The notes under the pieces were generated by a model. The model did no database searches. It had not been told where the DNA came from and was given only the letters and a program-made list of their open reading frames with translations. A stretch of 64,000 nt of DNA. Origin: Candidatus Nanohalarchaeota archaeon (GTDB lineage: Archaea; Nanohalarchaeota; Nanosalinia; Nanosalinales; Nanosalinaceae). This document shows, piece by piece, positions 35,634 to 56,481 of this stretch; the stretch's first letter is position 1; the number at the start of each line of letters is the position of its first letter. The position numbers and the translations under genes were made by a program. Location of the stretch: NCBI GenBank assembly GCA_022729235.1, contig JALDAJ010000001.1:192001-256000 (forward strand). The letters run 5' to 3'.

Positions 35634-35780
35634 GCCGGGGTGACTGAGTCTGGACGAAAGTGCCAGCCTGGAATAGCCGGCTCCTCTTTGAGGTGACGGC
35701 TTGAGAAGAGCTCTTCTCTTCGATCCCAGTCAGCTGGTGACCCATACCGGGTCTCCTGGGTTCAAATCCCAGCCCCGGCG
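35634..35780 (+). tRNA. tRNA-Ser(GGA) with 58-nt intron (35674-35731) at 37/38
   Basis: GCCGGGG/CCCCGGC acceptor, CCAGC/GCTGG anticodon stem, long variable arm, GTTCAAATC; central helix CTGG/CCAG with bulges AA|T and TC|A. Confidence 0.93.
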
Positions 35781-35908
35781 TCTTCGACGCCTTGCTGGAT
35801 TTGATTATCCTCACATCTCTCACGAGAAGTTCAGGGTTCAAATCCGAGAAATCCAGTTCTGGTTTCGAGTTGCAGAAAATCTTTTGATTTTCGAACCCAT
35901 ATCCGGCG
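35758..35908. repeat. Hairpin insertion(s) with partial duplication of tRNA-Ser 3' end
   Basis: GGGTTCAAATCC at 35758 and 35834, inverted copy GCTGGATTTGA at 35794, GCAGAAAATC-TTTT-GATTTTCGA at 35872. Confidence 0.7.
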
Positions 35909-35962
35909 CTTATCTAATATTCAGCCGGTTTTATAACCGAACTTCACCAAATCTTGTCCATC

Positions 35963-36811
35963 ATGAAAAAATCTATCTTACTCGCAACACTTGTACTCGC
36001 TATAGGCGTGGGATTCGCGAGTGCACAGGACGCGGAGACTCAGGAAGAACCTCAACCTGACGAGGAGGTACCTGAAGAAGTAAGTACAGGATGGTTTACA
36101 CCTGACTCAGCGCTCTACGGGCTCGAAACTGCCTGGGATAACACAGGTATGGCTCTAGGAGTCAAGTCTCCTGGCGATGTAGCCCAGAAGAGAGCTGCCG
36201 AAGCTCAAGTAATGGCTGAAGAAGGAAACTACGGGGCAGCACAGAGGGCGGCGGAAGGACTTGAGAACGCCGCATCAAGAGCCGGAGATGACGATATCGA
36301 AGGTATTGAACAGGCAACATCGACACTTGAAAGAGTGATCGAAGATGCGCCTGAAGAAGCCCTTGAAGGCCTCCAGACAGCGATGGAGAACGTGGCGGAA
36401 GCGGGTCCGGAGGATTTAGAAATCGAACCAGGACCACCGGGAGATGAACCAGGTGAAGACGTAGAACCCGGACAGCCGGATGACGAGCCTCAACCAGGTG
36501 ACCAACCGAATGGTGACGCTGAAGCAGGCGGTGAAGAAACTAGAGAGATAGTAGTAGAGAACGACGGGATGTCATTCGAAACAGGAGAAATCGAGGTTGA
36601 AGAAGGAGAAGAAGTAACTATCACATTCGCCAACCAGGGCGGTATCCACGACCTGAGAATCCCTGAACTTGAAGTAGGAACAGAGGAAATCTCAGGCGGA
36701 GAACGAGCGTCCTTCACCCACACCTTTGACGAACCAGGAACTTACGAATTTGAGTGCAGCGTCGGCAACCACGCCGAACAGGGTATGACTGGAGATATAG
36801 TAGTTGAGTAA
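35963..36811 (+). CDS. Secreted protein: helical N-domain, Pro/acidic linker, C-terminal cupredoxin (halocyanin-like)
   Basis: Signal peptide, TPDSALYGL (DUF5667-like), type-1 copper ligands HDL...CSVGNHAEQGM. Confidence 0.8.
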   Translation: MKKSILLATLVLAIGVGFASAQDAETQEEPQPDEEVPEEVSTGWFTPDSALYGLETAWDNTGMALGVKSPGDVAQKRAAEAQVMAEEGNYGAAQRAAEGLENAASRAGDDDIEGIEQATSTLERVIEDAPEEALEGLQTAMENVAEAGPEDLEIEPGPPGDEPGEDVEPGQPDDEPQPGDQPNGDAEAGGEETREIVVENDGMSFETGEIEVEEGEEVTITFANQGGIHDLRIPELEVGTEEISGGERASFTHTFDEPGTYEFECSVGNHAEQGMTGDIVVE

Positions 36812-36869
36812 ACCCTGTTCCTGGGACTCCTTCCTTTATTTTTACTACTTGCGTCTTGAAGCCAGTTCT

Positions 36870-38237
36870 TTAATCTATATAGAGAGTTTTCCTATTCACG
36901 AACTCTTTGATGCCTTCCTCTCCAAGCTCTCGACCGTAGCCAGAGTTCTTCACTCCGCCAAAGGGCAGTCTAGGATCGGATTTTACTAGTTCGTTAACAA
37001 ATACATTCCCTGCTTCTAGCTCTCTACTAAGTCTTTCCGCCCTTTCCAAGTCTTGTGTCCATATTGAGGCGCCTAGACCGTATGGAGTTCTATTTGCAAT
37101 TTCAACTGCTTCTTTTTCGGAAGAAACCGTAAAGACTGAAGCTACAGGTCCGAATAGTTCTTCTTCATAAGCCGGTGTTTCCTCCGGGATATCTCTTAAA
37201 ATCGTGGGTTCGTAGAAGAATCCGTTTCTATCCGGTATGCTGCCGCCGGTAACCACTTCAGCTCCTGCTTTAACTGATTCTTCAACCTGAGCGGCAAGTT
37301 CATCTCTCAGGTCTTTCCTTGCTATAGGGCCTATATCTACATCTTCGTTCGCCGGATTTCCGATTTGCATGGATTCAAACTGATTCTTAAGCATCTCCAG
37401 GCATTCATCAGCGATGTCCTCGTGCACTATTATTCTTTTTGCGGCGATACAGCTCTGTCCGTTGTTAAGAAGCCTTGATGTCGTGGCTACCTCACATGCT
37501 TTCTCTATATCTGCATCTTCAAGAATTATGAATGGGTCGCTGCCGCCAAGTTCTAGAACCGTCTTCTTCAGGTTTTCTCCCGCCTGTCTTGCCACCGCTT
37601 TTCCAGCTCCCGTGCTTCCTGTCAGAGTTACTCCTCTGACCCGGTCATCTGCTATAATTTTGGAGGCTTGATCGTTTGTCACGTATATATTCTGGAACAC
37701 GCCCTCAGAGAACCCTGCGTCTTTAAAGATTTCTTCTATCTTCGCAGCAGTTTTCGGGACATTTGGCGCATGTTTCAATATACCTACATTCCCTGCCATC
37801 AGGTTTGGTGCGGCGAAACGCATTACCTGCCATAGAGGAAAGTTCCAGGGCATTATCGCGAATACCGGTCCTAGAGGCTCATATCTTACCGTGCTTTTCT
37901 GCGCATCTGTAGGTATATTCTTCTCCGATAAGTAAGACTCAGCATATGATGCGTAGTGTTCACATACCCACGCACATTTCTCTACCTCTGATTTTGCAGA
38001 ATTTATGGGTTTGCCCATCTCCTCTGTCATTGTTTCAGAGAGTTCCTTCGAGTTCTCTCTAAGTAAATCAGCTACTTTTCTCATTTTCTGCCTTCTTTCT
38101 TCAAACCCTGTCTTTCTCCATTCTTGGAACGTTTCCCAGCTTTTCTCCAGGACTTGTCTCACTTCTTGATCTGGAGCAGTTTCAAACTCCTCTATATTTT
38201 CCTCCGTAGCCGGGTTAACTATCCTGTATTTTGACAT
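36870..38237 (-). CDS. NAD(P)-dependent succinate-semialdehyde dehydrogenase (Sad/GabD-like)
   Basis: IMPWNFPLWQVMRFAAP, LTGST, LELGGSDP, NNGQSCIAAKR, EELFGP. Confidence 0.9.
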   Translation of the reverse strand: MSKYRIVNPATEENIEEFETAPDQEVRQVLEKSWETFQEWRKTGFEERRQKMRKVADLLRENSKELSETMTEEMGKPINSAKSEVEKCAWVCEHYASYAESYLSEKNIPTDAQKSTVRYEPLGPVFAIMPWNFPLWQVMRFAAPNLMAGNVGILKHAPNVPKTAAKIEEIFKDAGFSEGVFQNIYVTNDQASKIIADDRVRGVTLTGSTGAGKAVARQAGENLKKTVLELGGSDPFIILEDADIEKACEVATTSRLLNNGQSCIAAKRIIVHEDIADECLEMLKNQFESMQIGNPANEDVDIGPIARKDLRDELAAQVEESVKAGAEVVTGGSIPDRNGFFYEPTILRDIPEETPAYEEELFGPVASVFTVSSEKEAVEIANRTPYGLGASIWTQDLERAERLSRELEAGNVFVNELVKSDPRLPFGGVKNSGYGRELGEEGIKEFVNRKTLYID

Positions 38238-38248
38238 ATCTCTCCACT

Positions 38249-39889
38249 TCAAGTTGGACAAATCATTTCTCCAAGTTTTTCAGTCAACCTGTGATTTTCC
38301 TCGGGATCCACGGGAACCTCGATTACATCTACTTCTCCACTGTCCAGCGACTTCTCCAGTATTTCTGTAAGCTGGCAGGGCGATTCAACTCTGTGACCTT
38401 GAGCACCATAGCTCTCCGCCAGCTTCACGAAGTCAGGATTGTCGAACTCTGCGCCGAACTTGTGACCGTATTCATCCACCTGTTTCCATGTTATCGCACC
38501 TAATTCCTGATCATTGAATACCAGAAGCGTCAAATCAAGATTTAGACGTGTGGCTGTTTCAAGCTCTTGGGCGTTCATAACAAAACAGCCATCCCCTATT
38601 GTAGCTACTATATTCCTCTCAGGTTCCGCCAGCTTTGCACCTATAGCTCCAGGAAGCGCTATCCCCATAGTAGCCAGTCCGTTTGAAACAATGAACGTGT
38701 TGGGTTCATAGGTAGGGTATAACCTGCTCATCCAGAGTTTATGGGCTCCCGTATCTGTTATAAGCACGTCATCATCCGCCAGATGTTCTCTAAGATCATG
38801 CACTATTCTCTGGGGCTTCATAGGAAGTGAATCATCATTTGTGTACTTGTTAAACTCGTCTTCTATAAACCTCTTCAGGTCTCTCGAATATTCAGCATCT
38901 TTTCCTTCTATATCCTCCTCTTTCAAAGTCCTCAAGGATTGTCTAATATTCCCTACCATCTGTGCTGAAGGCCTGTAATGTTTGTCGACTTCCGGAATCC
39001 GTGAATCAATATGAATGATTTCCTTATCTCTATCAGGATTCCATTTTTCAGGATAATATTCTATGTAATCCGTACCTACGGCGATAATAAGGTCGGCCTT
39101 TTCTATACCACACATCACATAATCCCGGTTCTGAAGACCGATTGTACCGATAGAAAGGTCTTCTCTAGCCGAAATAGCTCCTTTACCCATGAAAGTAGTC
39201 ACGACAGGAATATTATTCTGTTTTACAAACTGTGTGAGCTCCTCAGACGCGCCGGAACGTATAACGCCGTTACCAGCTATTATATACGGATTTTCAGAAT
39301 CCTCTATTAGTTCAGCTACTTCTCTGACAGTTTCAGCGTCCGGTTTTGTATCGCTGTCAAGTCCGGGTTTCGGCAGCAAAGGTTCGCCAATATCCTTGTT
39401 TTCCAGGACATCCGCGGGAAGCTCTATATGAGTGGCTCCCGGTTTCTCAGACTCAGCAATCTGAAAGGACTTCCTGACTATTTCAGGTATAGCCTCCGGT
39501 TTTTCCACGGACTTATTGAACTGGGTGACTTCACTTAGAATATTTACGACATCAATATACTGGTGTGATTCCTTGTGCGTCTTATCTCTTTCTAGTTGAC
39601 CCGTTAAAGCTACTAGCGCGCCTGCATCCAGGTTTGCGTCAGCGACAGCTGTAATAAGATTCGTGGCTCCCGGTCCAAGAGTTGAAAGACATACCCCTGC
39701 ATCTCCTGTCAGCCTTCCATAAACATCCGCCATGAAAGCCGCTCCTTGCTCATGCCTTGTTAAAACAAGATCGATATCGGAGCGAGAAAGTTCGTCCATT
39801 ATACTCGTGGTCTGTTCACCCGGCAAACCAAAGATGTATTCCACTCCTTCATTTTCTAATGCCTTGATGAGAAGCTCAGAGCCTCTCAT
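38249..39889 (-). CDS. ThDP-dependent acetolactate-synthase-like enzyme (candidate 2-oxoglutarate decarboxylase)
   Basis: FGLPGE, RHEQGAAFMADVYGRLTG, TLGPGATN, SNGLATMG, GDG..N motif; coupled to SSADH, no small subunit. Confidence 0.85.
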   Translation of the reverse strand: MRGSELLIKALENEGVEYIFGLPGEQTTSIMDELSRSDIDLVLTRHEQGAAFMADVYGRLTGDAGVCLSTLGPGATNLITAVADANLDAGALVALTGQLERDKTHKESHQYIDVVNILSEVTQFNKSVEKPEAIPEIVRKSFQIAESEKPGATHIELPADVLENKDIGEPLLPKPGLDSDTKPDAETVREVAELIEDSENPYIIAGNGVIRSGASEELTQFVKQNNIPVVTTFMGKGAISAREDLSIGTIGLQNRDYVMCGIEKADLIIAVGTDYIEYYPEKWNPDRDKEIIHIDSRIPEVDKHYRPSAQMVGNIRQSLRTLKEEDIEGKDAEYSRDLKRFIEDEFNKYTNDDSLPMKPQRIVHDLREHLADDDVLITDTGAHKLWMSRLYPTYEPNTFIVSNGLATMGIALPGAIGAKLAEPERNIVATIGDGCFVMNAQELETATRLNLDLTLLVFNDQELGAITWKQVDEYGHKFGAEFDNPDFVKLAESYGAQGHRVESPCQLTEILEKSLDSGEVDVIEVPVDPEENHRLTEKLGEMICPT

Positions 39890-39936
39890 AATCGAATCTC
39901 TCCTCCCGGAGATTTCTGCCTATCCATACTAATGTG

Positions 39937-39957
39937 TAAAAATGTTGCACATTTTTA
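39937..39957. promoter_or_regulatory. 9-bp inverted repeat TAAAAATGT-TGC-ACATTTTTA, candidate operator
   Basis: Perfect palindrome between the HTH regulator and the decarboxylase/SSADH pair. Confidence 0.55.
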
Positions 39958-39961
39958 AACA

Positions 39962-40270
39962 TTAAAGTCGTTCGATTGCCTCCCTCTTTTCCTCCATCCA
40001 CAAATCCAGTTCTTTACTGGCTTTCTCCCTGAGACTCTCAGAATCCATTGAATAGACATGTTCCCTCCCATTTCTTGAAACCTTAACCAAACCTGCTTTC
40101 TTAAGTCCTGACAGGTATCTCTGAACAGTGCTTCTGTCAAGATTGATACTATCAGATAGCTCTTTAACCGTCATCTCCTCTCCACAAAGCTCCATCAGGA
40201 TATCTACATCCCTACTTTTCAGCTTGAAAACAACACTCAAGAGCTCCTCTAACTCGGGGGAACACTCCAT
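39962..40270 (-). CDS. Winged-HTH transcriptional regulator (TrmB/ArsR-like)
   Basis: MTVKELSDSINLDRSTVQRYLSGLKKAGLV. Confidence 0.85.
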   Translation of the reverse strand: MECSPELEELLSVVFKLKSRDVDILMELCGEEMTVKELSDSINLDRSTVQRYLSGLKKAGLVKVSRNGREHVYSMDSESLREKASKELDLWMEEKREAIERL

Positions 40271-40474
40271 ACATGTAAATAAAGAAACTATACTTTTATT
40301 CTTGAAACGTATCACAGCCAGCCAGAAGCCCGAATCCCTTTAACACGACCTTAATCAGTACCTGATTAATAGCTACTAACACGCGATTTCTGCAGAAGCC
40401 GTAAGAGAAACGAGTGTTCAAGGGACACACACAACATTAATAAACTTTGCGGTAACAACAGTTCTCTTGTAACC

Positions 40475-40681
40475 ATGACAGAATGCGAAATCTGTGGTAG
40501 AACCGAGAAAGAACTCAGCGAAGAGTTCGGACGCGAGATCAAGGTTAGCGAGCATGAAGGCATGAACAAGTGCCAGAAATGCCTCAGCGAGTACCAGAGA
40601 GAGACAGGGGAAGAAAAAGTCGAAGACCTTGATAACGAGCTCGCGGAAAGTAAGGACTGGAAAGACGTCGTAACGGCGTAA
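40475..40681 (+). CDS. Small zinc-finger-like protein
   Basis: CEIC...CQKC, acidic tail. Confidence 0.65.
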   Translation: MTECEICGRTEKELSEEFGREIKVSEHEGMNKCQKCLSEYQRETGEEKVEDLDNELAESKDWKDVVTA

Positions 40682-40712
40682 CATTTCTATTTCTTCCTTC
40701 CAAAACTTAGAC

Positions 40713-41063
40713 ATGCCACAGCCAGAAAACTATCTCAGAACCATCTACGAACTCTCCGAGAAAGGAGAGAGTTCTACAGCCAACTCCGAAGTAGCTGAGG
40801 CTCTAGACGTATCAGACGCAAGCGCCTCGGAAGCCATACAGAAACTGGAGGAGCGAAATCTAGTGTGCAGAGCACCCTACAAAGGCATTACCCTGAGCCC
40901 ACCCGGGAAAAAGCAGGGAGAAAAACTCTCCAGAAAATACAGCGTACTTGTAAAATTCTTCGAATGGTTAGGAGTTGAAAACCCTGAAAAAGAAGCTGTT
41001 GAAATAGAACACGCGATTTCCAGTGATGCCACGGAAAAGATAGAAGAACTCGTCAACAGATAA
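40713..41063 (+). CDS. DtxR/MntR-family metal-dependent regulator
   Basis: ENYLRTIYEL, VAEALDVS.ASASE, PYKGITL, EIEHAIS. Confidence 0.9.
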   Translation: MPQPENYLRTIYELSEKGESSTANSEVAEALDVSDASASEAIQKLEERNLVCRAPYKGITLSPPGKKQGEKLSRKYSVLVKFFEWLGVENPEKEAVEIEHAISSDATEKIEELVNR

Positions 41064-41150
41064 CATGTCAACGATATCAGTCCTCCAGGAACTAGTCCCC
41101 CAAGAATAGACTGTTTTCTTAAGTGTTGCCTTCTTTCAGTAAAATGTACG

Positions 41151-41223
41151 AAACAGCCCCCTGGTGTGAACGCAGATACGAGATCTGCTTGAAGCACACA
41201 GGAAGCAAATAGCCCCCTGGTGT
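41151..41223. repeat. Duplication of tRNA-Gln 5' end at 56-nt offset
   Basis: AGCCCCCTGGTGT at 41155 and 41211 flanking a GCAGAT-ACGAG-ATCTGC hairpin. Confidence 0.8.
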
Positions 41224-41343
41224 AGCGGTCAATCATAGCGGCCTTTGGCACCTCAAGTTCTCGTCAGGGAACGAGGACTTTGAAGAGCTCTGCTCTTCAG
41301 GTGAAGATAGCCGCTGACCCAGGTTCGAATCCTGGGGGGGCTA
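41211..41343 (+). tRNA. tRNA-Gln(TTG) with 60-nt intron (41249-41308) at 37/38
   Basis: AGCCCCC/GGGGGCT acceptor, GCGGC/GCCGC anticodon stem, GTTCGAATC; BHB: CTTT/GAAG helix, bulges GG|C and AT|A, outer ACCT/AGGT. Confidence 0.93.
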
Positions 41344-41346
41344 ACC

Positions 41347-41628
41347 ATGGCATCAGAAGTACGTGCATCCCACATCCTGGTCGACAGCAAGGAAAAAGCA
41401 CAGAACATAAAAGAACAGCTGGACAACGGAAAAAGCTTTGAACAGCTGGCAAAGGAGGCAAGCGAATGTCCCTCATCGGAGAAAGGAGGAGACCTCGGAT
41501 TTTTCGGAAAAGGTGACATGGTCAAGCCGTTCGAGAGGAAGGCGTTCAGCATGGATGTCGGCGACGTTTCCGGACCTGTCAAGACAGAGTTCGGGCATCA
41601 CCTGATCAAGAAGACTGATGAACGCTGA
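41347..41628 (+). CDS. ppiC: Single-domain parvulin peptidyl-prolyl isomerase
   Basis: RASHILV, SECPS..KGGDLGFF.KG.MVKPFE, VKTEFG.HLI. Confidence 0.92.
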   Translation: MASEVRASHILVDSKEKAQNIKEQLDNGKSFEQLAKEASECPSSEKGGDLGFFGKGDMVKPFERKAFSMDVGDVSGPVKTEFGHHLIKKTDER

Positions 41629-41678
41629 ACGCTGTCCACCCTTTATAAAATTTAGAGTGAAGTTGAGTGGTACGGGTT

Positions 41679-42170
41679 ATGTCTGAGACAAAAGAAGTTG
41701 TAAGAATTGCAAGAACAGATATCGACGGCACCAAGCCTGTAGCCAAAGCTATAACCTCACTGCAGGGTGTCGGCGAGACTTACGGTCACGCAGTATCACA
41801 GGTAATAGATGTAGATACAGAGACCAAGATAGGAGACCTTAGCGATGAAGAAATCGATAAAATCGAGGATACTATAAGAAGCCCGGAGGAAGCCGGAATC
41901 CCTGAATGGCTCAGAAACAGAAGAAAAGATAGGGAAGAAGGAGATGACCAGCACCTGATAGGTTCGGATCTTGAACTGAAAGAAGAATTCGATATCAGGC
42001 GCCTGAAAGAAATCGACTCGTACAAGGGCTGGAGACACGAAATCGGACTACCTGTTAGAGGACAGAAGACCAAGTCCTCGTTCAGATCAGGTTCAAAAAT
42101 CGGTGTTTCACGCGCACGCCTAAGAGAAGAAGCTTCCGAAGGCGGCGGAGACGACGAAGGTGAGGAGTAA
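41679..42170 (+). CDS. rps13: 30S ribosomal protein S13
   Basis: RIARTDIDG, WL.NRRKD, SYKGWRH..GLPVRGQKTK. Confidence 0.96.
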   Translation: MSETKEVVRIARTDIDGTKPVAKAITSLQGVGETYGHAVSQVIDVDTETKIGDLSDEEIDKIEDTIRSPEEAGIPEWLRNRRKDREEGDDQHLIGSDLELKEEFDIRRLKEIDSYKGWRHEIGLPVRGQKTKSSFRSGSKIGVSRARLREEASEGGGDDEGEE

Positions 42171-42192
42171 TGCACGGACAAGGTGATTTTGA

Positions 42193-42783
42193 GTGGTAAA
42201 AAAACTGAAGAAGCAGTACGAGACTCCTAACGAAGGATGGAACCAGGAAAGAATTAACAGAGAAATAGAGCTTATGGAGGAATACGGACTGAAGAACAAG
42301 GAAGAAGTCTTCAAAGCCCAGAGCCAGCTAAGAAGCCTGAGACGCGAAGCCCGTAACCTGGTAGCATCGGAAAACGAGAAGGAAAGGAAAGATCTTATTG
42401 AGAAAGCCAACCGGCTAGGGATTGTAAAAAAGGATGCAGAGCTTGAGGATATACTATCCCTAAGTGTTACAGACTTCCTTAACAGGAGACTCCAGACCGC
42501 AGTAAACAGGCGAGGATATACAGACACAGTGCAGGAGGCACGACAGCTTGTTGTTCACGGTCACGTTTACGTCAACGGACAGAGAGTAAACGTCCCGAGC
42601 TACATGCTTACACAGGAGGAAGAAAAAGGTATAGAGGTAATACTGCCTGAACCAGAAGATGAAGAAACAGAGCAGGAAGAAGATGAAGCCGAAGCAGAAA
42701 CAGGTGAAGAAGAGGAAACGGAAGAAAATGAAGAAGCAGAGGAAAAAACTGACGAAGAATCCGAAACGGAGGAAGAAGAATGA
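42193..42783 (+). CDS. rps4: 30S ribosomal protein S4 with acidic tail (GTG start)
   Basis: [27 protein letters not shown]. Confidence 0.96.
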
Positions 42784-43160
42784 CTAAAGGAATAGTTAAC
42801 ATCTACTCAAGCTTCAATAACACGATAATCCACATAACTGATGCTACAGGAGCTGAAACAATTTCCCGTATATCATCAGGCATGGTTACCGACAAAGGTC
42901 GGCTCCAGGGAGAACCGTTCCCTGCTATGAAGGCAGCGAAACAAGCAGTAGAGGAGGCACTGGAGAAAGGCATAGAAGAAGTAGACATCCAGGTAAGAGC
43001 ACCTGGAGGACAGAAACAGAAGATGCCCGGGAAAGGCGCACAGCCAGCTATCCGTGCGATTTCACGAAGCGAAATCGATGTCGGAAACATCGAAGACGTT
43101 ACACCCGAACCACACGACGGCGTAAGAGCCAAAGGCGGTAAGAGAGGTCGAAGAGTATGA
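42780..43160 (+). CDS. rps11: 30S ribosomal protein S11
   Basis: [28 protein letters not shown]. Confidence 0.97.
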
Positions 43161-43729: not shown

Positions 43730-43814
43730 AATTTTTCTCTCATTCTGGATAACCTACCTCCCCCACTTTAAACTCTTCTACATTAATTCTCCTCTAGAGC
43801 CAGCTGTATCCAAC

Positions 43815-43965
43815 GCCGGGGTGGCCGAGTGGCTAAAGGCGCGGGACTTAAGTTCCTCAAGTTCTCCGACAGGGAGAACGAGGACCTAGAAGCGAACGCA
43901 CGTGAGCTTCGTGAGGATATCCCGTCCCCGCAGGGGGTGCGCGAGTTCAAATCTCGCCCCCGGCA
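43815..43965 (+). tRNA. tRNA-Leu(TAA) with 66-nt intron (43853-43918) at 37/38
   Basis: GCCGGGG/CCCCGGC acceptor, CGGGA/TCCCG anticodon stem, long variable arm, GTTCAAATC; relaxed BHB. Confidence 0.9.
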
Positions 43966-44043
43966 AATAATTTTTTCTGGCGAGATTTAATAAGCGGCAG
44001 AAAATCTCCGATTTTCAACCGAGTTCAAATCCCTGCCCCGGCA
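43943..44043. repeat. Duplication of tRNA-Leu 3' end (78-nt offset) with inverted copy and GCAG hairpin
   Basis: GAGTTCAAATC...CCCCGGCA at 43943 and 44021; AAATCTCGCC/GGCGAGATTT; GCAGAAAATC-TCC-GATTTTC. Confidence 0.8.
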
Positions 44044-44085
44044 TTTTCAGTGCTTACAAGCTGTAAGAACAGACCTTCCGAAAAG

Positions 44086-44101: not shown

Positions 44102-44121
44102 AAAGGTTGTACTCTAGTGCA

Positions 44122-44376: not shown

Positions 44377-44446
44377 CTCTCAAACCATGACACCAGCGCA
44401 ACCGATTTATAAAGTTTTATCTCAACTGAATGACTACAGCCATCAG

Positions 44447-44510
44447 TGGTCTCGGTCGAACCTCTGGTTCGAGCCGTTGAGAAGATCTCTGATCTTCGAA
44501 CCGCGAGGTG
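44447..44510. repeat. Double-hairpin element in rpl18e leader
   Basis: TCGAACC-TCT-GGTTCGA and GAAGATC-TCT-GATCTTC followed by GAGGTGA SD. Confidence 0.7.
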
Positions 44511-48742: not shown

Positions 48743-48780
48743 AAGTGTTATACTCGATTTCTTCTATACTCATTTACAAT

Positions 48781-48855
48781 GCGGCCGTGGTGTAGTCCGG
48801 TCAATCATCTCGGCCTTTCGAGCCGATCACCCGGGTTCAAATCCCGGCGGCCGCA
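48781..48855 (+). tRNA. tRNA-Glu(TTC)
   Basis: GCGGCCG/CGGCCGC acceptor, TCGGC-CTTTCGA-GCCGA anticodon arm, GTTCAAATC. Confidence 0.94.
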
Positions 48856-48911
48856 TAACCTTTCAGGTTCTACTTGAGCCGGGTTTTGAAGGAAAAATCC
48901 TGGCGGCCGCA
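48839..48911. repeat. Duplication of tRNA-Glu 3' end at 56-nt offset with inverted copy
   Basis: AAATCCCGGCGGCCGCA (48839) and AAATCCTGGCGGCCGCA (48895); GCCGGGTTTTGAA at 48878 is complementary to the T-arm. Confidence 0.85.
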
Positions 48912-48932
48912 CTTAATTATCTTCTATAAACA

Positions 48933-49250
48933 CTACTCGTTATTCTGCTTATACGTGCTCCACATGTAAACCAGTCTCTTGAAACAGTTCTTCCAGTCGT
49001 CTTCTCTGGTGAAGAACATCTTCTTCCATTCACCATCAATTTTCAGCATTATAGAGGGAAAAACAGGGTCAAGCTCGAAATCCAGGTCTTCTACATCCGA
49101 ATATTTCACGGAGTCAAGTATGATCTCTCTCGAAAACATGTCCGAAATCCGCTCCCAGTCCTCCACATCTTCTCTTTCCCGGGAAATACTTCCAAGACCT
49201 AAAGTGACATCACCCAGTTTTGATTCAAAGGTCTCCTCATCTTCGTTCAT
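48933..49250 (-). CDS. Hypothetical protein
   Basis: 105-aa ORF abutting citryl-CoA lyase. Confidence 0.6.
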   Translation of the reverse strand: MNEDEETFESKLGDVTLGLGSISREREDVEDWERISDMFSREIILDSVKYSDVEDLDFELDPVFPSIMLKIDGEWKKMFFTREDDWKNCFKRLVYMWSTYKQNNE

Positions 49251-49952
49251 CTAATCACCGATGTACTCTCCTTCTTCACGCCGGAAGTCTTCCTCGTCCA
49301 TCTCTTCACGTACGTGCGCGACGAGTCCCGGTGTCCTCGCGATTATGAACAATCCTTTCCCAAGTTCAGGCTCCCAGCCGAGGTCAGACATAACCGAGGC
49401 GATAGCACCGTCCACATTGATAACCAGCCGTGTCTTCCTTTCTGCGAACTCTTCCTGTATCCGTCTTATCTTCTCAACGTGCTCTCCAGCGATGCCAAGT
49501 TCTTCCGCTTTCTCGAATATCTTCTCGGCTCTAGGATCCTCCTCGTCATAGACCTTATGCCCTATACCAGGGAGTTTCTCACCCCTGTCGAGGCATCCTT
49601 CAACTATCTCTTCCGCCCCGTCTTCCTGCTGGAGCATCTCCATCGCGCCCTCGATAGCGCCACCGTGCTTGTCGCCGAGCGCGAGCACGCCAGAGGCTAC
49701 ACTAGCATTCATATCGTTTCCTCCGCTCTGGACGGTGCGGGCGGAAACAGTTGACGGGTTGCCGATGCCGTGGTCGATACAGCTCGAAAGTATCGTGTTG
49801 AAAATTTCCGATTCTCCGTCGCTTGGCTCTTCCCCTCTCAGCACCAGCCAGATAGCGTCCGCGAAATCCATGTCCATCACGTCTTCCAGTAGCTCTCCTC
49901 GGACAACCGCGTCCTCACCGCTTGAAGAGATACTAGTCTCCCACTCCGACAT
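49251..49952 (-). CDS. Citryl-CoA lyase (citrate-synthase-like domain)
   Basis: W.TSIS, DHG...PST..AR, HGGAIE, PGIGH, DPR, INVDGAIA, R.PGLVAH. Confidence 0.88.
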   Translation of the reverse strand: MSEWETSISSSGEDAVVRGELLEDVMDMDFADAIWLVLRGEEPSDGESEIFNTILSSCIDHGIGNPSTVSARTVQSGGNDMNASVASGVLALGDKHGGAIEGAMEMLQQEDGAEEIVEGCLDRGEKLPGIGHKVYDEEDPRAEKIFEKAEELGIAGEHVEKIRRIQEEFAERKTRLVINVDGAIASVMSDLGWEPELGKGLFIIARTPGLVAHVREEMDEEDFRREEGEYIGD

Positions 49953-50355
49953 GTTCTTCACCCGATTTGTTGATCGAGATTTGTCGCATCGTAAGGTCTT
50001 CCAGTATCTCGTTTACCGATACTTCGCCTGGTTCAAGGGCTTTCAAGAGAGATGAGCCGACCCTTTTCCTCCAGACCTCATCTATTTTCTCTCGGGTCCT
50101 ACCCGAACCATCTTCATAGGTAAGCTCGATTACCGCATTTTCCTCACCGCTGGCGTAGACCTCTATAGTATGACTTGAAGAATCTATTTTCAGGTAACGC
50201 GCATCCTCTCCCAGTTGCATCTCTAGAGATTCCTCGTCCTCATATCTGTCACCGTGGTCGCGTAGTTGTGCCAAAAAACGGTTAATATCATACTCCTCAC
50301 CTATACTACTTTTCCGGTAAGCAATACCTCCTTCTCTTCCGTATAACGTCCTCAA
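49933..50355 (-). CDS. Hypothetical protein
   Basis: ORF overlapping both neighbours in the operon. Confidence 0.55.
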   Translation of the reverse strand: MRTLYGREGGIAYRKSSIGEEYDINRFLAQLRDHGDRYEDEESLEMQLGEDARYLKIDSSSHTIEVYASGEENAVIELTYEDGSGRTREKIDEVWRKRVGSSLLKALEPGEVSVNEILEDLTMRQISINKSGEEHVGVGD

Positions 50356-51242
50356 AGTATCTCCTCCAGTTTGTCGCCTATCTCGTGGTGCACGTCTACC
50401 ACGTGTGCACCTGCGTCTTGGAGGGCTTTAACTTTACCTGACGGCGTGCCTCTTTCACCCCTTATGATGGCGCCGGCGTGCCCGTACTTCTTCTCGGGCA
50501 TCTCCTCCGTGAACTTTCCGGCGATGAAAGCAATCAGCGGCTTCGAGAACCCTCCCTTCTCCAGCAGTTCCGCGGCTTTCTCTTCGTAGGTACCGCCTAG
50601 CTCGCCGTACATGACGACCGCTTCCGTCTGAGGGTCTTCCTCGAAAAGCTTTAGCGCGTCCTCGAAGGACGTTCCGGCGATTACGTCTCCGCCGAGACCA
50701 GCTGCTGTCGAGATACCGTAGCCTTTCTGCCTGATGACCCACGCGGTCTCCGTTGTCATCCCTCCGCTCTTCGATATCACTCCTACCTTACCCGGCTCGT
50801 ATACTTTTCCAGGACTGCTTCCGCCGATAGGCCCGAGCTTGCACTCGCCCGGCGTTATTATACCGACCGAGGTCGGTCCGACAACTCTTGCGCCTTTCTC
50901 TCTTGCTTTCTCGTTTATCTTCCACGCATCTTTCGTAGGTATCCGTTCAGTCACGATGTTAAGGAGCGGTATATCGTTCTCCAGCGCCTCGAACGCTGCG
51001 TCTTTAGCCGCGAAGCTGGGTACGTACACGAGCGATGCATTAATTTCTGGGTGCTCGTTAAGCGCCTCCCTGACGGTGTCGTAGACCGGTACGCCCGTGA
51101 CTTCCTGCCCGCCTTTGCCCGGAGTCACGCCCGCGACGACGTCGGTCCCGTACTCTATCATCTCCGGTACTTTTTCGGATGCCTCCCTGCCTGTTATTCC
51201 CTGGACCAGTACCTTTGTATCCTCATCAACCAGTATACTCAT
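50352..51242 (-). CDS. CoA-ligase alpha subunit (citryl-CoA/succinyl-CoA synthetase alpha-like)
   Basis: VQGITG, GVTPGKGG, SKSGG, GELGG, phospho-His motif GHAGA. Confidence 0.9.
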   Translation of the reverse strand: MSILVDEDTKVLVQGITGREASEKVPEMIEYGTDVVAGVTPGKGGQEVTGVPVYDTVREALNEHPEINASLVYVPSFAAKDAAFEALENDIPLLNIVTERIPTKDAWKINEKAREKGARVVGPTSVGIITPGECKLGPIGGSSPGKVYEPGKVGVISKSGGMTTETAWVIRQKGYGISTAAGLGGDVIAGTSFEDALKLFEEDPQTEAVVMYGELGGTYEEKAAELLEKGGFSKPLIAFIAGKFTEEMPEKKYGHAGAIIRGERGTPSGKVKALQDAGAHVVDVHHEIGDKLEEIL

Positions 51243-51895
51243 TCTTGCGTCATCTCTTCTCGAACCGCGTCTTCGATGTTTTCAAAGCTGAGTTCTTCTA
51301 TCTGTTTCCCGTTCCAGTCGGAGCCAAATGTGTTGAACTGTTTCACCCAGACGAACTCCATGCCGACTTTCCGGCATCCTTGATCCACTCTCGCATTGTT
51401 TCCAAAATAGGTGAACTCCTCCGCGCGTTCGTCCCGGATATTGAGAAAAGCCTGGAAAATATCTCTCGATGGTTTCTCCGCGCCGACTTCTTCTGAGACA
51501 ACGTAGCCCTCGTAGTTGATGTAGTGGTTCCTGAAAACATCAATCATGAACTCTTTCTCCTCCACAGAATTGTCGCTGATGAAGCCTATAGTTCCCAGCT
51601 GAGAGTTGCACCTCATAAGGGTTTCGGGTATCTCGCTTCCCGCGATGAACCTCCGCGCCTTTCTCCTGTACGCCTCCACTATATCTTCCGGGTCTGCCTT
51701 GAGATTGTTCGACATCAGGAAATCGTGGACCTCCTGTAGCTTGAAGATGTTGTACTCGTAAATCGGGAACCTCGGTATATCCTTCTCAGGGTATCCCTGC
51801 TCCACCAAGACATCCTTCACCGCCTCGTTCATCAAACGGTCGTCCGGCAGTAAAGTGTCGCCGATGTCGAATACAGGTGTTTTAATCCTAGCCAT
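51239..51895 (-). CDS. HAD-superfamily hydrolase
   Basis: VFDIGDTL, ISD, SEEVGAEKP, GNN...D. Confidence 0.8.
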   Translation of the reverse strand: MARIKTPVFDIGDTLLPDDRLMNEAVKDVLVEQGYPEKDIPRFPIYEYNIFKLQEVHDFLMSNNLKADPEDIVEAYRRKARRFIAGSEIPETLMRCNSQLGTIGFISDNSVEEKEFMIDVFRNHYINYEGYVVSEEVGAEKPSRDIFQAFLNIRDERAEEFTYFGNNARVDQGCRKVGMEFVWVKQFNTFGSDWNGKQIEELSFENIEDAVREEMTQE

Positions 51896-53057
51896 CAGTC
51901 GAAACCTCCGGTTTCTCATCCTCCGAACTCTCCGAGTTTCGTCCGTCCACCATCTCCATCAAGACCTCCGCGGTCTCAGTCATCGGAGTGTCATTCCTGA
52001 AAAGCTCCATTTCGAGCCCGAGTTTGTCGCGGGTCTCCCTCAGCAGCTCGAACGCTTTATCGGCGTTCGGTCCGTCTCGCCTCACAACTATCGGGTAGTC
52101 CGGCTCGATTTCTTCCAGCGCCTGGCAGAAGCCTTTCATGGTGCGATAGATGTCGGTGTTGTTTGCTGTTCCTCCTGCATGCCAGCAACCCTCAAGACCG
52201 GGCTTTGAAAGCACTATTTTCGATAACCGGTAGACCTTCTCCGTGGGCGGATTGCCCCCGTATTCAGTGTAGTTCGCCGGGCTTCCGCCGTACGATATCA
52301 GCGCGTCCATATTTGTCAGTGACGCGCCACCCCCGGCAAGCATCATCGCGATGTCGCCGTCCAGCTCGGTGTATTTGCCCGCGATTCCATGGTGGTCGTC
52401 CTCATCGATTCTCTCCGCTTTAATCTCTCTATCTGTTTTCTCCCTGCCGAACTCTGACCGCTCCGAATAGTCGCGGTCGTGCCTGTAGGACGCGTCATCC
52501 TCTAAATCTATCACCGCATCCAGAACCACATATCCCTCTCCCGTCTTGACGAGCGGGTTGACCTCCAGCATCCGGGCGTCCTCCTCGAAGAAGCAATGCG
52601 CCAGCTTCTCCAGCGCGGAACCCAGTTTAACGATGTCGTCGCTTTCTACACTGTTCTCCTTCAGAAACTGCCGTATCCTCCACTGCAGGACATCTTCAAG
52701 CACCAGTTTCTCGACTTCTCTATCCTCGATTCCTGTTCCACCGTCTCTAGAAAACATGAGCACAGGTTTTCTCAAATCGGTATCGTAGATTATAGCGGCG
52801 TAGTATTCCGCCGAGTAATCAACTTTCTCCTCGACCAGGACTTCCTCCACACGGCGACCATTGACCTCGCTACCTCTCATCTCCGAGGCAATTTCCTCTG
52901 CTTCCTTCCTGCTGGATGCGAACTTGACACCGCCGTGCTCCTTCCTGTTCTTCGCCAGCACCTGTGCCTTGACCACGTACTCTTCTCCGTTATCGCGGGG
53001 CGTCTCCAGACCGTAGTTTTCGAGAAGTTCCTTGGCTTCGTGTTCGAAAAGCTTCAC
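51888..53057 (-). CDS. ATP-grasp beta subunit with ATP-citrate-lyase-type citrate-binding domain (GTG start)
   Basis: KLFEHEAKELL, VKAQV, LEVNPL, AGGGAS, ANYTEYGGNP, GGTANNT, VRRDGPN. Confidence 0.85.
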   Translation of the reverse strand: MKLFEHEAKELLENYGLETPRDNGEEYVVKAQVLAKNRKEHGGVKFASSRKEAEEIASEMRGSEVNGRRVEEVLVEEKVDYSAEYYAAIIYDTDLRKPVLMFSRDGGTGIEDREVEKLVLEDVLQWRIRQFLKENSVESDDIVKLGSALEKLAHCFFEEDARMLEVNPLVKTGEGYVVLDAVIDLEDDASYRHDRDYSERSEFGREKTDREIKAERIDEDDHHGIAGKYTELDGDIAMMLAGGGASLTNMDALISYGGSPANYTEYGGNPPTEKVYRLSKIVLSKPGLEGCWHAGGTANNTDIYRTMKGFCQALEEIEPDYPIVVRRDGPNADKAFELLRETRDKLGLEMELFRNDTPMTETAEVLMEMVDGRNSESSEDEKPEVSTDG

Positions 53058-53108
53058 GTTAACCGTGTTGTATCCAAAACTTAAAGCATTCACTGAGAAT
53101 CGGATACC

Positions 53109-53627
53109 ATGGTATACACCGGTCGCGGCGATAAGGGAGAAACTGATCTCGGCTCAGGCGAGAGCGTGGGAAAGGACTCGGAGAGACTTGAAGCGTACGG
53201 AACCGTCGACGAATTAAATTCTCTTCTCGGCGTGGTAGCTTCGAAGTCAGAGAGAAAAAGAGAGGATATCGAGGCGATACAGAACGAGCTGCATATTTTA
53301 CAGGCGGAGCTAGCAGACATGAACTCGGAGCACAGGATTACTGAAGAAGACATCGATAGGCTTGAAAACGAGTGTGATTCTTACCAAGAAGAACTGCCTC
53401 ATCCAGGAGGTTTCGTAATATCCGGGGGTACGGAAACTGCAAGCTATCTACATCTTGCACGTTCAGTAGCGAGGAGAGCAGAGAGAAAAATTGCGGCGCT
53501 GAGAAACGAGAAATATATCCAGCCAGAAGTATTGACGTATATTAACCGGTTGAGCGACCTGTTCTTCCTGATGGCGCGGCACGAGAACCATGTTGAAGGT
53601 GTCGAGGAGAAGAATCCGGACTACTGA
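53109..53627 (+). CDS. pduO: PduO-type cob(I)alamin adenosyltransferase
   Basis: YTGRGDKGET, AYGTVDELNS, ARSVARRAER, YINRLSDLFF. Confidence 0.93.
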   Translation: MVYTGRGDKGETDLGSGESVGKDSERLEAYGTVDELNSLLGVVASKSERKREDIEAIQNELHILQAELADMNSEHRITEEDIDRLENECDSYQEELPHPGGFVISGGTETASYLHLARSVARRAERKIAALRNEKYIQPEVLTYINRLSDLFFLMARHENHVEGVEEKNPDY

Positions 53628-54374
53628 TTACATCTTCCGCGTCCATTCGTTGCTGGAGAACTTTTCATCAGCCAGTTCGCACGCCTCTTCAAGCTCTTCC
53701 TCGGTCAGCGAACCTTCTTTCCCACCGTATTCTTCCTTGAACTTTTGCTTCATCTCGTCGATGACTTCTTCCCGTGAATGTTCGATATAGTCCTTCATTA
53801 CCGCAACCCGTTTCTCCGCAGATTCTATCGCCTTGTCCGACACTTTCTCCTTACCGATGCGCAGAGCTTTCAGCATCTTTCTAGTATCGAGGTCGTAGCT
53901 CAGCATGGTGTGGTGCAGTACCGCGTCCTGTTTCCTCAACTGTGCGGCACCACCGATTTTCCCGTCCGGGTGCTCTATGTCGTTTAGAGGTCTCCACTCC
54001 ACGTCAAGCCCAAGAGAGTTCAGCGCCTGGATAGCCCATCTGTCAAGCTCACGGTAGCTTTTTTCGACGTCCGCCGGCACCTCCTTCTTCGGTATGTAGA
54101 GCGAGTAAGTTATCACGTTTCCAGGTTCGGCGTACATCGCACCACCGCCCGTTATACGCCGTACGACCTCTATCTCGTTCTCCGTCACATAGCCATGCTG
54201 TACCTCATCTTGGTATGCCTGGAATCTTCCAAAAGGAATCGAGGAATTCTCGCGGTGCCAGAAGCGCAGTGTCGGACGCATCTCTCCACTATCCAGCTTC
54301 TCGGTCAAAACTTCGTCGAGGGCGTGGTGCACCGCCTCCGAGTATCTTCCTTCATCTATTATACGCCACTTCAT
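53628..54374 (-). CDS. lplA: Lipoate-protein ligase catalytic subunit
   Basis: VVRRITGGGAMY, NDI...GKIGGAAQ, LHHTM. Confidence 0.9.
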   Translation of the reverse strand: MKWRIIDEGRYSEAVHHALDEVLTEKLDSGEMRPTLRFWHRENSSIPFGRFQAYQDEVQHGYVTENEIEVVRRITGGGAMYAEPGNVITYSLYIPKKEVPADVEKSYRELDRWAIQALNSLGLDVEWRPLNDIEHPDGKIGGAAQLRKQDAVLHHTMLSYDLDTRKMLKALRIGKEKVSDKAIESAEKRVAVMKDYIEHSREEVIDEMKQKFKEEYGGKEGSLTEEELEEACELADEKFSSNEWTRKM

Positions 54375-54643
54375 CCAGACACCACCTTTTCCAGTGCTTC
54401 CACGACATGCTCCGGGGAGAAACCTATGAGTTCCGCGTCTACATCCTCGATAGCATCTATGACTTCTTCTTCGGAGAAGTCTGTTGGAACTCCTGTTATA
54501 GCCTCTTCTATATCTTCAAGGGCTTCAGGCGGCTGGATGAAGAAATCACCGGTTATAGAGATCTGGTTAAAGACATCGTCAAAATCAGCCTCCACTTGAA
54601 CGAGCTTACCGTCCGGTACTTTAACCGAGGCTTTCTCTGCCAT
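54371..54643 (-). CDS. lplB: Lipoate-protein ligase accessory subunit
   Basis: KVPDGKLV, ITGDFF..P.EAL..IE. Confidence 0.85.
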   Translation of the reverse strand: MAEKASVKVPDGKLVQVEADFDDVFNQISITGDFFIQPPEALEDIEEAITGVPTDFSEEEVIDAIEDVDAELIGFSPEHVVEALEKVVSG

Positions 54644-54699
54644 ACGTAGAACGGTTAAATCCCAATTTATATAGGTTGTCAAGACTAACTTCCGGTTAA

Positions 54700-55446
54700 A
54701 TGGGTCAGGTAGAGGGAATATCTTACCGTACAGAGAAAGGGGAAGGAACTCCTCTAGTCTTCATACACGGGTGGCTATGCTCGAAGGAGACCTGGGAACC
54801 TATAGATGACGAGCTTGAAATCGATAATCCGAAGGTGTTCTACGATTTGCGCTGTCACGGCGAATCCTCCTGTTCAAAATTCGACTTTGATATCCTGGCA
54901 GAGGATCTCAAAACCGTTATAGAAGAGCTCGGACTGGAGAATCCGGTACTGGTCGGGGACTCGATGGGAGGTATGGTTGCATTGACCTATGCCGTCCAGT
55001 ACGACGGTTTTTCAGGACTCTTTCTAACCGGGACCTGTGCCTCAACACCTGAACCCGAGAACTACTCGCCGCGTTTCTTCCTCGAAAAATTCGGTTCTAT
55101 GGACCGGCGTGCGTGGGCGATAGAGATAATCGAGAACTATGCCTCTGACACAGATAACGTGGAGGCGAAGGATGCAGCCCGTAAGACCCTTATAGAGGCG
55201 GGAGACACCGAAGTGATCTATGGTTTAGGTTCGATGATAAGCTACGATTTGAGAGACAGGTTAGAAGAGTTAGACACGTCTGCCGCGGTCGTGGCAGGAA
55301 AGAAAGACGGAGCGATAACTATGGAAAAATCAAAAGAACTAGCAGAGATTCTTGACGCAGAGTTACATAAAATCGATGCCACACACCTGATGTTCTCAGA
55401 GAAACCGGGAAAGATAGCCAGTTTACTTGAAAACTTCCTCTCCTGA
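54700..55446 (+). CDS. Alpha/beta hydrolase
   Basis: VFIHGW, DLRCHG, GDSMGG, G.KD, catalytic His. Confidence 0.9.
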   Translation: MGQVEGISYRTEKGEGTPLVFIHGWLCSKETWEPIDDELEIDNPKVFYDLRCHGESSCSKFDFDILAEDLKTVIEELGLENPVLVGDSMGGMVALTYAVQYDGFSGLFLTGTCASTPEPENYSPRFFLEKFGSMDRRAWAIEIIENYASDTDNVEAKDAARKTLIEAGDTEVIYGLGSMISYDLRDRLEELDTSAAVVAGKKDGAITMEKSKELAEILDAELHKIDATHLMFSEKPGKIASLLENFLS

Positions 55447-56322
55447 TTCTAAATCTTCAAATCCGTCATATCTACCCTGTAGAGAGAACCTGTTCCTGCT
55501 GTCTCCTGTCAGGAGGCAGAAGCCACGGTAATCCCTGCCTTCACCATCCACAGGATTTTCCAGCCACTCGTCTGTCGAGTAACGTTCCCTTCTCCAGTAA
55601 TCCATACCATCATCTGTAAGACTCTCCTCCCTATACTCAAAGGGAAACTTGTCGGCGATATGGTCCAGGAAGTGCTCCTGGTAAGACTCCTTCAATCCCG
55701 TCCTGTTTAACGCCGGATCCTCCGAAAGCGCTGGTAGGCGCTCTATATACTTTTTCTCTTCTACTTGGTGCTCCTCGCCGTCCCTGAGCCTTATCCACCT
55801 TTCCAGGTCCTCCGCAGGCCACTCCTCGAGAGAGACCATGCCAACGAAAAGGATTGAACCTGAATCATAGTCTACGTAAGTGCTGTTGCCTGACAGGGGC
55901 TTACCATCCAGCAGAACACATAGCTCGTCACTGTCTTCCGCGAGACCCAACCTCTCCTGTTCAACGCCAACATCCACGCAACTATCGATAATCGAAGGTC
56001 CTATGTAGCGTTCGAACAAGTCCTCTTTACGTCCCGGATACTCTCCTGACTCCGGGAGCGCTATCGCGTAGTGGAAGTCTCCCGGCTTTATCATTATCGC
56101 GGAGCCACCGGTCAGCCTCCTGTTAAGCGGCAGACCGTCACCCTTTATCTCCCCCTGATTCACGTGATTCAGGGGTTCCGATCTTGCAAGAGAGATTCCT
56201 TCTTTACTGAACTCCGAGACATCGACGACAGGCATACCTTCTCTCGCCCGGCTGAGATGGCGATTGTAAGCCGAGAAGACCTTCTCTATATCGCCTTCTA
56301 TACTCTGTAGTTCCGCGTCCAT
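55423..56322 (-). CDS. Divergent lipoate/biotin ligase-fold protein
   Basis: RRLTGGSAI and DGKPLSGNS motifs. Confidence 0.7.
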   Translation of the reverse strand: MDAELQSIEGDIEKVFSAYNRHLSRAREGMPVVDVSEFSKEGISLARSEPLNHVNQGEIKGDGLPLNRRLTGGSAIMIKPGDFHYAIALPESGEYPGRKEDLFERYIGPSIIDSCVDVGVEQERLGLAEDSDELCVLLDGKPLSGNSTYVDYDSGSILFVGMVSLEEWPAEDLERWIRLRDGEEHQVEEKKYIERLPALSEDPALNRTGLKESYQEHFLDHIADKFPFEYREESLTDDGMDYWRRERYSTDEWLENPVDGEGRDYRGFCLLTGDSRNRFSLQGRYDGFEDLESGEEVFK

Positions 56323-56400
56323 CTTTAACCGTAGATGAAAATAGGCGACACTACCTGTTAAAAAACTAGTCACCAACTCAGTTTACAGTATTCTCCATAC

Positions 56401-56481
56401 GCGGGGGTAGCCAAGAATAGCTTGCCAACCCCCTCCTCAAAAACAATAGGCAAGCCTTTACCCCATGCGGGGGTAGCCAAG
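56401..56481. repeat. Duplication of tRNA-Leu 5' end at 66-nt offset with inverted copy
   Basis: GCGGGGGTAGCCAAG at 56401 and 56467; CTTGCCAACCCCC at 56421. Confidence 0.85.

Follow-up and report, generated by a model that had tools for sequence, protein, structure and literature searches.

Duplicated tRNA gene ends in a nanohaloarchaeal genome and their possible origin in the insertion of small hairpin modules

Five of the six tRNA genes in a 64,000-nucleotide (nt) stretch of DNA from a Candidatus Nanohalarchaeota archaeon (the window, bases 192001–256000 of the single 1,027,595-base pair (bp) contig of genome G000) carry one of their ends in duplicate. A partial copy of the 3' or 5' terminus lies outside the gene, and a short, imperfect inverted copy of the same terminus sits in between, together with hairpin-forming sequence. 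The arrangement recurs across this genome and in its relatives. At somewhat less than even confidence, we favour reading these duplications as the marks left by small non-coding hairpin modules that were inserted duplicatively, and repeatedly, within the last 12–25 nt of genes. One gene copy would remain intact, and the outer copy (in occasional cases the inner one) would then decay.

Survey and anatomy of the duplicated ends

The tRNA genes were called with ARAGORN, which found three in the window in its default mode and six when introns were allowed; 35 were found in the whole of G000, a genome of 95% completeness. A terminus was counted as repeated when an ungapped local match with a score of at least 12 was present within 160 nt in the flank matching that terminus, and comparisons of 3' ends with the upstream flank and of 5' ends with the downstream flank served as controls. 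Under this criterion, the terminus was repeated in 16/35 tRNA genes (the 3' end downstream in 12/35, the 5' end upstream in 4/35), against none of 70 mismatched-flank controls, the highest control score being 9, and chance is therefore excluded. Among 40 relatives of the same order open to search, a second complete genome, G007, was surveyed in the same way and yielded 11 repeated termini in 40 tRNAs and none in 80 controls, with the same layout. The original prediction had proposed such a survey of the tRNA flanks of this and related genomes, and the outcome, with 0/150 controls overall, bears it out; within the window, all five of its coordinate pairs hold, tRNA-His is the exception, and an imperfect inverted copy was located at all five sites. 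An assembly artefact is unlikely as the source of the duplications because the identical layout is found in the complete G007 genome and at orthologous tRNAs of G001, G004, G005, G012, G014, G015 and G024.

Further counts were obtained for inverted copies and for local repeats at large. Inverted copies with a score of at least 8 were present in 11/35 of the 3' flanks in G000, compared with 3/35 and 4/35 in two control flanks. Exact local direct repeats of at least 11 nt at a spacing of 25–140 nt numbered 171 in G000, against 18–36 in Markov controls, and the tRNA flanks, which make up about 2% of the genome, contain 20 of these 171. An exact inverted stretch between the copies was found in 9/20 of the tRNA-flank repeats, compared with 8/118 of those in coding DNA.

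The components follow a constant order outward from the gene, mirrored at 5' and 3' ends: gene terminus, native flank, imperfect inverted copy, loop or hairpin, and direct copy. The native flank often forms a mini-hairpin incorporating the last tRNA bases and sometimes contains a T-run. At 3' ends, the inverted copy corresponds to the T-loop plus the 3' strand of the T-stem, and at 5' ends to the acceptor plus a D-stem strand; the direct copy of a 3' end reaches from the T-loop as far as the discriminator base, that of a 5' end from position 1 as far as the D-loop. The hairpin is often bordered by GA or CA on its 5' side and by GA on its 3' side. The “GCAG hairpin” pointed out earlier is one variant of this flanked class; G000 contains 64 hairpins of the class, compared with 21 for a Markov control. 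Where an element lies at a 5' end, the flanked motif is antisense, so that its polarity follows the gene end rather than the transcript.

The stretches between the copies (hereafter inserts) were measured in G000 and G007 together. All 29 span 24–116 nt, with 22/29 at 3' ends and 7/29 at 5' ends, in agreement with the earlier claim that both ends are hit. Repeat scores ranged from 12 to 25, and repeat length was variable. The outer edge of the repeat falls within 0–3 nt of the mature tRNA end in 25/29 cases. Over the next 15 nt beyond the repeat, similarity was in the control range (7/15 or less) in 25/29 and above it in 4/29 (Phe, Tyr and Leu-GAG in G000; Ala-CGC in G007), where the flank is also duplicated. 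T-runs of at least four follow the distal copy in 14/22 cases, the proximal end in 6/22 and unduplicated tRNAs in 17/53, a distribution which suggests that the distal copy retains the original trailer.

The coordinates of the window features are collected in Table 1. In all five duplicated cases the gene is completed by the proximal copy, so that the insert is not required for a full tRNA. The inverted copy of tRNA-Leu(TAA) matches the unusual T-stem of its own tRNA at 10/10 positions. In RNA folding, the inverted copy can pair with the distal copy and enclose the inner hairpin, and the fold z-scores of the window elements were −2.2 (Ser), −4.6 (Gln; −4.55), −1.0 (Leu-TAA), −0.7 (Glu) and −2.2 (Leu-TAG).

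Table 1. Window tRNA genes, their repeated ends and the associated elements (window coordinates)
Feature	Coordinates	Strand	Details
tRNA-Ser(GGA)	35634..35780	+	58-nt anticodon-loop intron; 3' end is the proximal copy, 35758–35780
Ser 3'-end direct repeat	35758–35769 / 35834–35845	+	12 nt; remainder of the copy lies behind the second hairpin, 35896–35908
Ser trailer element	35781..35908	+	native flank, inverted copy 35797–35804, first part of distal copy 35834–35845, two hairpins
Ser trailer, second hairpin	35875–35892	+	followed by decayed remainder of distal copy, 35896–35908
Gln 5'-end direct repeat	41155–41167 / 41211–41223	+	13 nt
Gln 5' element	41155..41210	+	distal copy of tRNA positions 1–13 (41155–41167), hairpin 41172–41188, inverted copy 41195–41202, spacer
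tRNA-Gln(TTG)	41211..41347	+	ARAGORN start 41210; 60-nt canonical intron; splice motif fits the rule
tRNA-Leu(TAA)	43815..43965	+	66-nt intron; proximal 3' copy 43942–43965
Leu-TAA 3'-end direct repeat	43942–43965 / 44020–44043	+	score 15; three mismatches, in the T-stem part
Leu-TAA trailer element	43966..44043	+	T-run, inverted copy 43979–43988, hairpin 44000–44016, distal copy 44020–44043
tRNA-Glu(TTC)	48780..48856	+	proximal 3' copy 48839–48855
Glu 3'-end direct repeat	48839–48855 / 48895–48911	+	one mismatch
Glu trailer element	48857..48911	+	mini-hairpin flank, inverted copy 48878–48890 (12/13), distal copy 48895–48911
Leu-TAG 5'-end direct repeat	56401–56415 / 56467–56481	+	15 nt
Leu-TAG 5' element	56401..56466	+	distal copy of positions 1–15 (56401–56415), inverted copy 56421–56433, spacer with hairpin arm
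tRNA-Leu(TAG)	56467..56550	+	
tRNA-His(GTG)	61641..61715	+	sole window tRNA without a duplicated end; all scores 5–6

Spread, shared modules and occurrence beyond tRNA genes

At tRNA-Lys, the comparison of G007 with G000 provides an empty site. The tRNA-Lys end is single in G007, a further insert of 55 nt and a repeat of 21 nt are present in G000, and the flank after the second Lys copy of G000 aligns with the flank after the G007 tRNA-Lys, which is the picture of insertion with a long target duplication at this locus. Only Leu-TAA, Pro-GGG, Lys-TTT, Ser-GGA (3') and Tyr (5') are duplicated in both genomes, the others being lineage-specific, and the elements are patchy at the orthologous loci of G001, G005, G006, G007 and G015; G001, which belongs to the same genus as G000, has neither the Ser-GGA nor the Gln element. 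One tRNA-Lys trailer element is common to G000, G001, G004, G007, G012, G014 and G024, with compensating changes in the mini-hairpin behind the tRNA. Candidate BLAST matches covering the T-arm through the second copy were obtained in two other families of the order.

Hairpin modules are common to inserts at different tRNAs. Those of Lys and Trp have the spacer and hairpin in common and differ in the tRNA-specific inverted part, and the trailers of Ser-GGA and Ser-TGA are near-identical across some 110 nt despite their differing tRNA bodies. One hairpin stem was found at Ser-CGA (G000), Tyr and Met (G007), Ser-TGA (G015) and Leu-TAG (G001), and the Leu-TAG 5' element of the window has a near-identical counterpart at tRNA-Leu(GAG), at genome positions 931204–931275. 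Arrays in which copies shorten or decay outward are present at Lys (three copies), Ser-TGA and Gly-TCC in G000 and at Leu-TAA in G007. Decayed distal copies were identified at Ser-GGA, Ser-CGA and Leu-TAA in G000 and at Lys in G001 and G004. Substitutions particular to a species are present in distal copies of the Lys acceptor stem, of Tyr position 7, and of the Ser-GGA T-stem and acceptor.

Outside tRNA genes, a start-codon repeat that is exact over 17 nt and has an inverted copy is located at genome position 721240, and looser cases of the layout are found at protein-gene ends at 166058, 217859 and 583058. A chaperonin-like gene with a Gly/Met-rich tail (genome 166000–166100) shows the layout of tRNA 3' ends: beyond a two-hairpin module, its final codons and its stop recur. 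Several protein genes have a flanked hairpin in front and a loosely repeated start region. Long exact repeats like the one at 721240 are seldom met at protein-gene ends, and tRNA ends are the main site. Of the claim that the duplications come from the same process as repeats at start codons, the similar layout at some protein-gene ends is borne out.

Several further structures were encountered on the way. Two-hairpin modules lie just 5' of the 16S rRNA and near an rRNA end (genome 256440–256560 and 263220–263320), as well as at the 3' end of a weak match to RNase P RNA (genome 268000–268100; 50 bits against a gathering score of 84). GA-flanked hairpins stand directly before start codons at window positions 25406–25440, 25859–25890 and 44481–44500 (plus strand) and 51915 (minus strand), and at genome positions 487334, 487883, 583058 and 605427. 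Their 3' arm is Shine-Dalgarno-like and is paired with an anti-Shine-Dalgarno-like 5' arm, and an upstream ATG opens a short frame whose end overlaps the main GTG or ATG start. From their sequence, the GA-flanked hairpins might conceivably be K-turns bound by L7Ae, an RNA-kink-binding protein. Behind tRNA-Pro(TGG), three partial 3' copies are found at 0.9, 3.1 and 3.8 kb (genome 155800–158850); the nearest is split in the T-loop by hairpins, and the whole resembles stacked classical integration sites. Coding regions also contain tandem repeats in frame, of 108 nt (genome 823280–823800) and 42 nt (genome 251780–252010, i.e. window 59780–60010), which have no relation to the tRNA elements. A strong excess of A over T on the plus strand runs throughout the window, with an AT skew of up to 0.4, which fits an acidic proteome and the location of most genes on one strand.

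Origin of the duplications

According to the reading that we tentatively prefer, a recurrent insertion process would be active in this nanohaloarchaeal lineage, by which a hairpin-rich module of 24–116 nt would land in the T-loop (3' end) or the D-loop (5' end). The stretch from the landing point to the mature gene end would then be doubled, and a short inverted copy would arise beside the module. With one full gene copy kept, the event would be harmless and survive; the outer partial copy, being dispensable, would decay, and each newer event would displace older copies outward, so that arrays build up. In occasional cases the inner copy might be the one to decay, and the insert would become an obligate non-canonical intron. 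Insertion itself is what we infer from the single empty-site comparison of two genome sequences, and the order of events and the link to introns are likewise inferred. In favour of this reading stand the frequency and specificity of the repeats, the empty site at tRNA-Lys, the turnover between genomes, the modules common to unrelated targets, the arrays with outward decay, the T-runs after the distal copy and the links to tRNA introns described below.

Several results weigh against this reading. The empty-site comparison comprises a single locus, and no integrase, reverse transcriptase, transposase or element-borne nuclease was found with the inserts. Terminal inverted repeats belonging to the inserts themselves are absent, and the repeat can be anywhere from 12 to 25 nt long, both of which set them apart from classical transposition. 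The inverted copy matches the T-stem or D-stem of each individual tRNA, and must therefore have been copied on site or selected, rather than borne by a ready-made element. Distal copies are often perfect for species-specific substitutions (Lys, Tyr, Ser-GGA), which calls for gene conversion, for selection or for an origin in the very recent past. In 24/29 inserts there is no sequence similarity to true tRNA introns. Finally, the stop of the repeat at the mature tRNA end is not predicted by a blind duplication of DNA; this sharp stop is unexplained by any DNA-only model and is the main reason for which the RNA-guided and intron-birth readings discussed below are kept alive.

The search for an enzyme covered families that could move or copy such segments. 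In line with the original prediction, neither cargo nor an integrase is present between the copies in any of the 29 inserts, and the only two PF00589 (tyrosine-recombinase) hits in G000, at 841 kb and 862.7 kb, are far from the elements, one of them adjoining tRNA-Thr(GGT). Reverse transcriptase (PF00078) gave no hits in G000, and retro-insertion of tRNA fragments was rejected accordingly. A GIY-YIG nuclease (PF01541) as the driver was unsupported in G000 and G007, in which nothing exceeded the cut-off, the best G000 match reaching 17 bits away from the elements. Within the family, the domain was above cut-off in 4/26 genomes, with three hits in frames of 564–578 aa and the others in frames of 181 and 274 aa. 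In G011, a 106-aa GIY-YIG-like frame (L146, 999–1316) lies 59 nt behind tRNA-Lys. At 21.6 bits it is borderline, just short of the cut-off at 22.6, and of the 41 genomes searched G011 alone has it.

An alternative that we regard as rather unlikely takes the duplications as the arrival stage of non-canonical archaeal tRNA introns. A module entering the D- or T-loop would bring a copy of the gene end with it, and the event would thereby be neutral at birth; decay of the outer copy would leave a fossil in the flank, and decay of the inner copy an obligate intron. The sharp stop would then mean that processed tRNA, or fragments cut in the D- or T-loop, guide or template the event. The candidate example in G000 is tRNA-Gly(GCC) (genome 41423–41553, minus strand), which was mis-set by ARAGORN and scores 27 bits, below the Rfam cut-off. 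The sole pairing partner of its acceptor is a 5' piece some 60 nt upstream, the gene is complete only with this distal piece, and the 59-nt intervening stretch ends in a decayed look-alike of it, all of which implies, as far as the sequence goes, a putative D-loop intron of about 59 nt. As judged from the sequences of relatives, D-loop introns are present in tRNA-Gln (G006 and G007) and tRNA-Leu-TAA (G005), with a 5' duplication instead in G000 or G015; for Leu-TAA, the duplication in G015 corresponds in place to the D-loop intron of G005. Furthermore, the likeness to true tRNA introns was above 22.3 bits, the 99th percentile for 600 random segments, in 5/29 inserts, and by eye the canonical introns of G000 follow the same two-hairpin plan as the inserts. 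Its tRNA genes include long introns, and box motifs were absent from them by eye, so that a box C/D reading was dropped. Asn and several other tRNAs went undetected in G000 by ARAGORN, Rfam and pattern scans for T-arm, acceptor pairing and D-arm, and some tRNA genes are probably interrupted in ways that standard tools miss; the pattern scans for the missing tRNAs yielded no obligate T-loop intron in G000.

Splicing of the inserts was assessed with the bulge-helix-bulge rule (a 4-bp central helix and two 3-nt bulges), which was checked on the Gln intron (A, 7 bp; H, 4 bp; B, 4 bp). Leu-GAG is the sole duplication with a strict symmetric splice motif (6 + 4 + 6 bp, 63-nt intron), which it owes to a repeated unit that in its own right forms a hairpin, with a loop of 7 nt. 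In the window, the related element of Leu-TAG has lost this motif. None of the T-loop cases fits the strict rule, and a loose scan of the whole genome was uninformative, with 553 hits against 543 in a random control. Since the strict motif is confined to Leu-GAG and loose motifs are at random level, splicing of most inserts is unnecessary and probably absent. G000 does possess a splicing-endonuclease gene (genome 616804–617085), with a reading frame of 198 aa, a size that we take to be typical of the homotetrameric type with strict substrate needs.

These results also bear on the view that the elements are a working part of the precursor RNA, in which the distal copy would replace the proximal portion, or the inverted and distal copies would form a switch or processing signal kept by selection. 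It would account for the sharp outer boundary at the mature end, for distal copies that track species-specific acceptor and D-stem changes, and for the persistence of the Lys trailer element across genomes with its compensating changes. The strict splice motif formed by the two Leu-GAG copies speaks for it as well, as do the T-runs after the distal copy, by which this copy is probably transcribed. However, the splice-motif results outside Leu-GAG, the decay of several distal copies, the patchy presence even within a genus, the T-runs directly behind the tRNA in 6/22, the antisense orientation of the flanked hairpin at 5' ends and the modest z-scores (−0.7 to −4.6) count against such a role, which we consider unlikely. 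A competition of the antisense copy with T-arm folding of the pre-tRNA, as proposed earlier, is conceivable at most; in the folds, this copy can pair with the distal copy instead.

Two explanations remain at the DNA level. An element-free local copying error, for which the original prediction had suggested nick-primed fold-back synthesis, strikes us as doubtful: replication or repair would stall at the structured, heavily transcribed gene border, a fold-back would create the inverted copy, and a switch back would create the direct copy. Two such template switches fit the order of the components and their mirror symmetry at both gene ends, and the inverted copy specific to each tRNA, the co-duplicated flank in four cases and the failure to find a mobility enzyme are equally in keeping with it. 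Against this, hairpin families common to unrelated loci, genomes and introns are left unexplained unless hairpins pre-existed at every site, and a switch back onto the template should recopy the flank, which is unduplicated in 25/29. The short-range, cargo-free repeats of the original proposal are borne out, and three results oppose a purely local copying error: the hairpin families common to unrelated tRNAs and to different genomes, the likeness of 5/29 inserts to true tRNA introns, and the stop of the repeat at the mature tRNA end in 25/29. Attachment-site remnants, that is, larger tyrosine-recombinase elements that entered tRNA genes and were later deleted to a stump, are very improbable. 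The 3' ends of tRNA genes are classic integration targets, the partial copies behind tRNA-Pro(TGG) lie at kilobase distances, and an integrase gene adjoins tRNA-Thr(GGT). On the other hand, every insert is short, 7/29 are at 5' ends, the layout with its inverted copy is uniform, the same hairpins are found at many different tRNAs, and an independent deletion to one size at 27 loci of two genomes is implausible.

Significance and comparison with known systems

In these genomes of about 1 Mb, dozens of fresh, half-decayed and fully resolved events stand side by side, so that the steps can be ordered by comparison. The duplications thereby address the open question of where split tRNA genes and tRNA introns of archaea come from, and may represent the way in which unusual tRNA introns originate. 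The route by which archaeal tRNA introns arrive is still described as open in an Asgard preprint (10.64898/2026.10.13.758758). If the trailers act in RNA, they would constitute a new kind of signal for the making of tRNA. In practical terms, the default tRNA finder missed three of six window genes, and duplicated ends can cause errors when tRNA ends, introns or attachment sites of DPANN archaea are annotated. No published description of this pattern in nanohaloarchaea was found in the literature, with the proviso that supplementary tRNA tables could bear on the point.

Insertion with long target duplication was described by Furuta, Abe and Kobayashi (2010; PMC2853133), whose inserts are reported to be restriction-modification genes of kilobase size. 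As in those inserts, the direct target duplication is longer and more variable than a transposase footprint and there is no transposase inside; unlike them, ours are non-coding hairpins of 24–116 nt, with an extra inverted copy of the target and a location at gene ends. The model of tRNA gene disruption in Caldiarchaeum (PMC3293823) has a 1.8-kb element with a recombinase gene between the copies, and also links such insertions, as a proposal, to the gain of tRNA introns. The partial tRNA copy beside an intact gene recalls the attL/attR duplications of such integrative elements, from which our cases differ in the absence of cargo, in the involvement of 5' ends and in the inverted copy. An integrase attachment-site duplication was rejected, as neither recombinase nor cargo lies between the repeats.

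Miniature inverted-repeat transposable elements (MITEs) and repetitive extragenic palindromic (REP)-type repeats are small, non-coding, hairpin-forming, multi-copy and without an enzyme of their own, and on these general features the inserts resemble them. Unlike MITEs, the inserts lack terminal inverted repeats of their own, the target duplication of 12–25 nt is variable, and the inverted segment copies the target and occurs once. The footprint of a MITE or classical transposon was discarded for the want of both element terminal inverted repeats and a fixed duplication length. As regards archaeal bulge-helix-bulge introns, most inserts differ in lying outside an intact gene and in having no splice motif; they were not classed as such introns, given that the strict motif was found only at Leu-GAG and that the insert is required only at tRNA-Gly(GCC). 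They nevertheless resemble these introns in their hairpin modules, which are partly common with true introns, in the D-loop introns at matching places in relatives, and in the strict motif of Leu-GAG.

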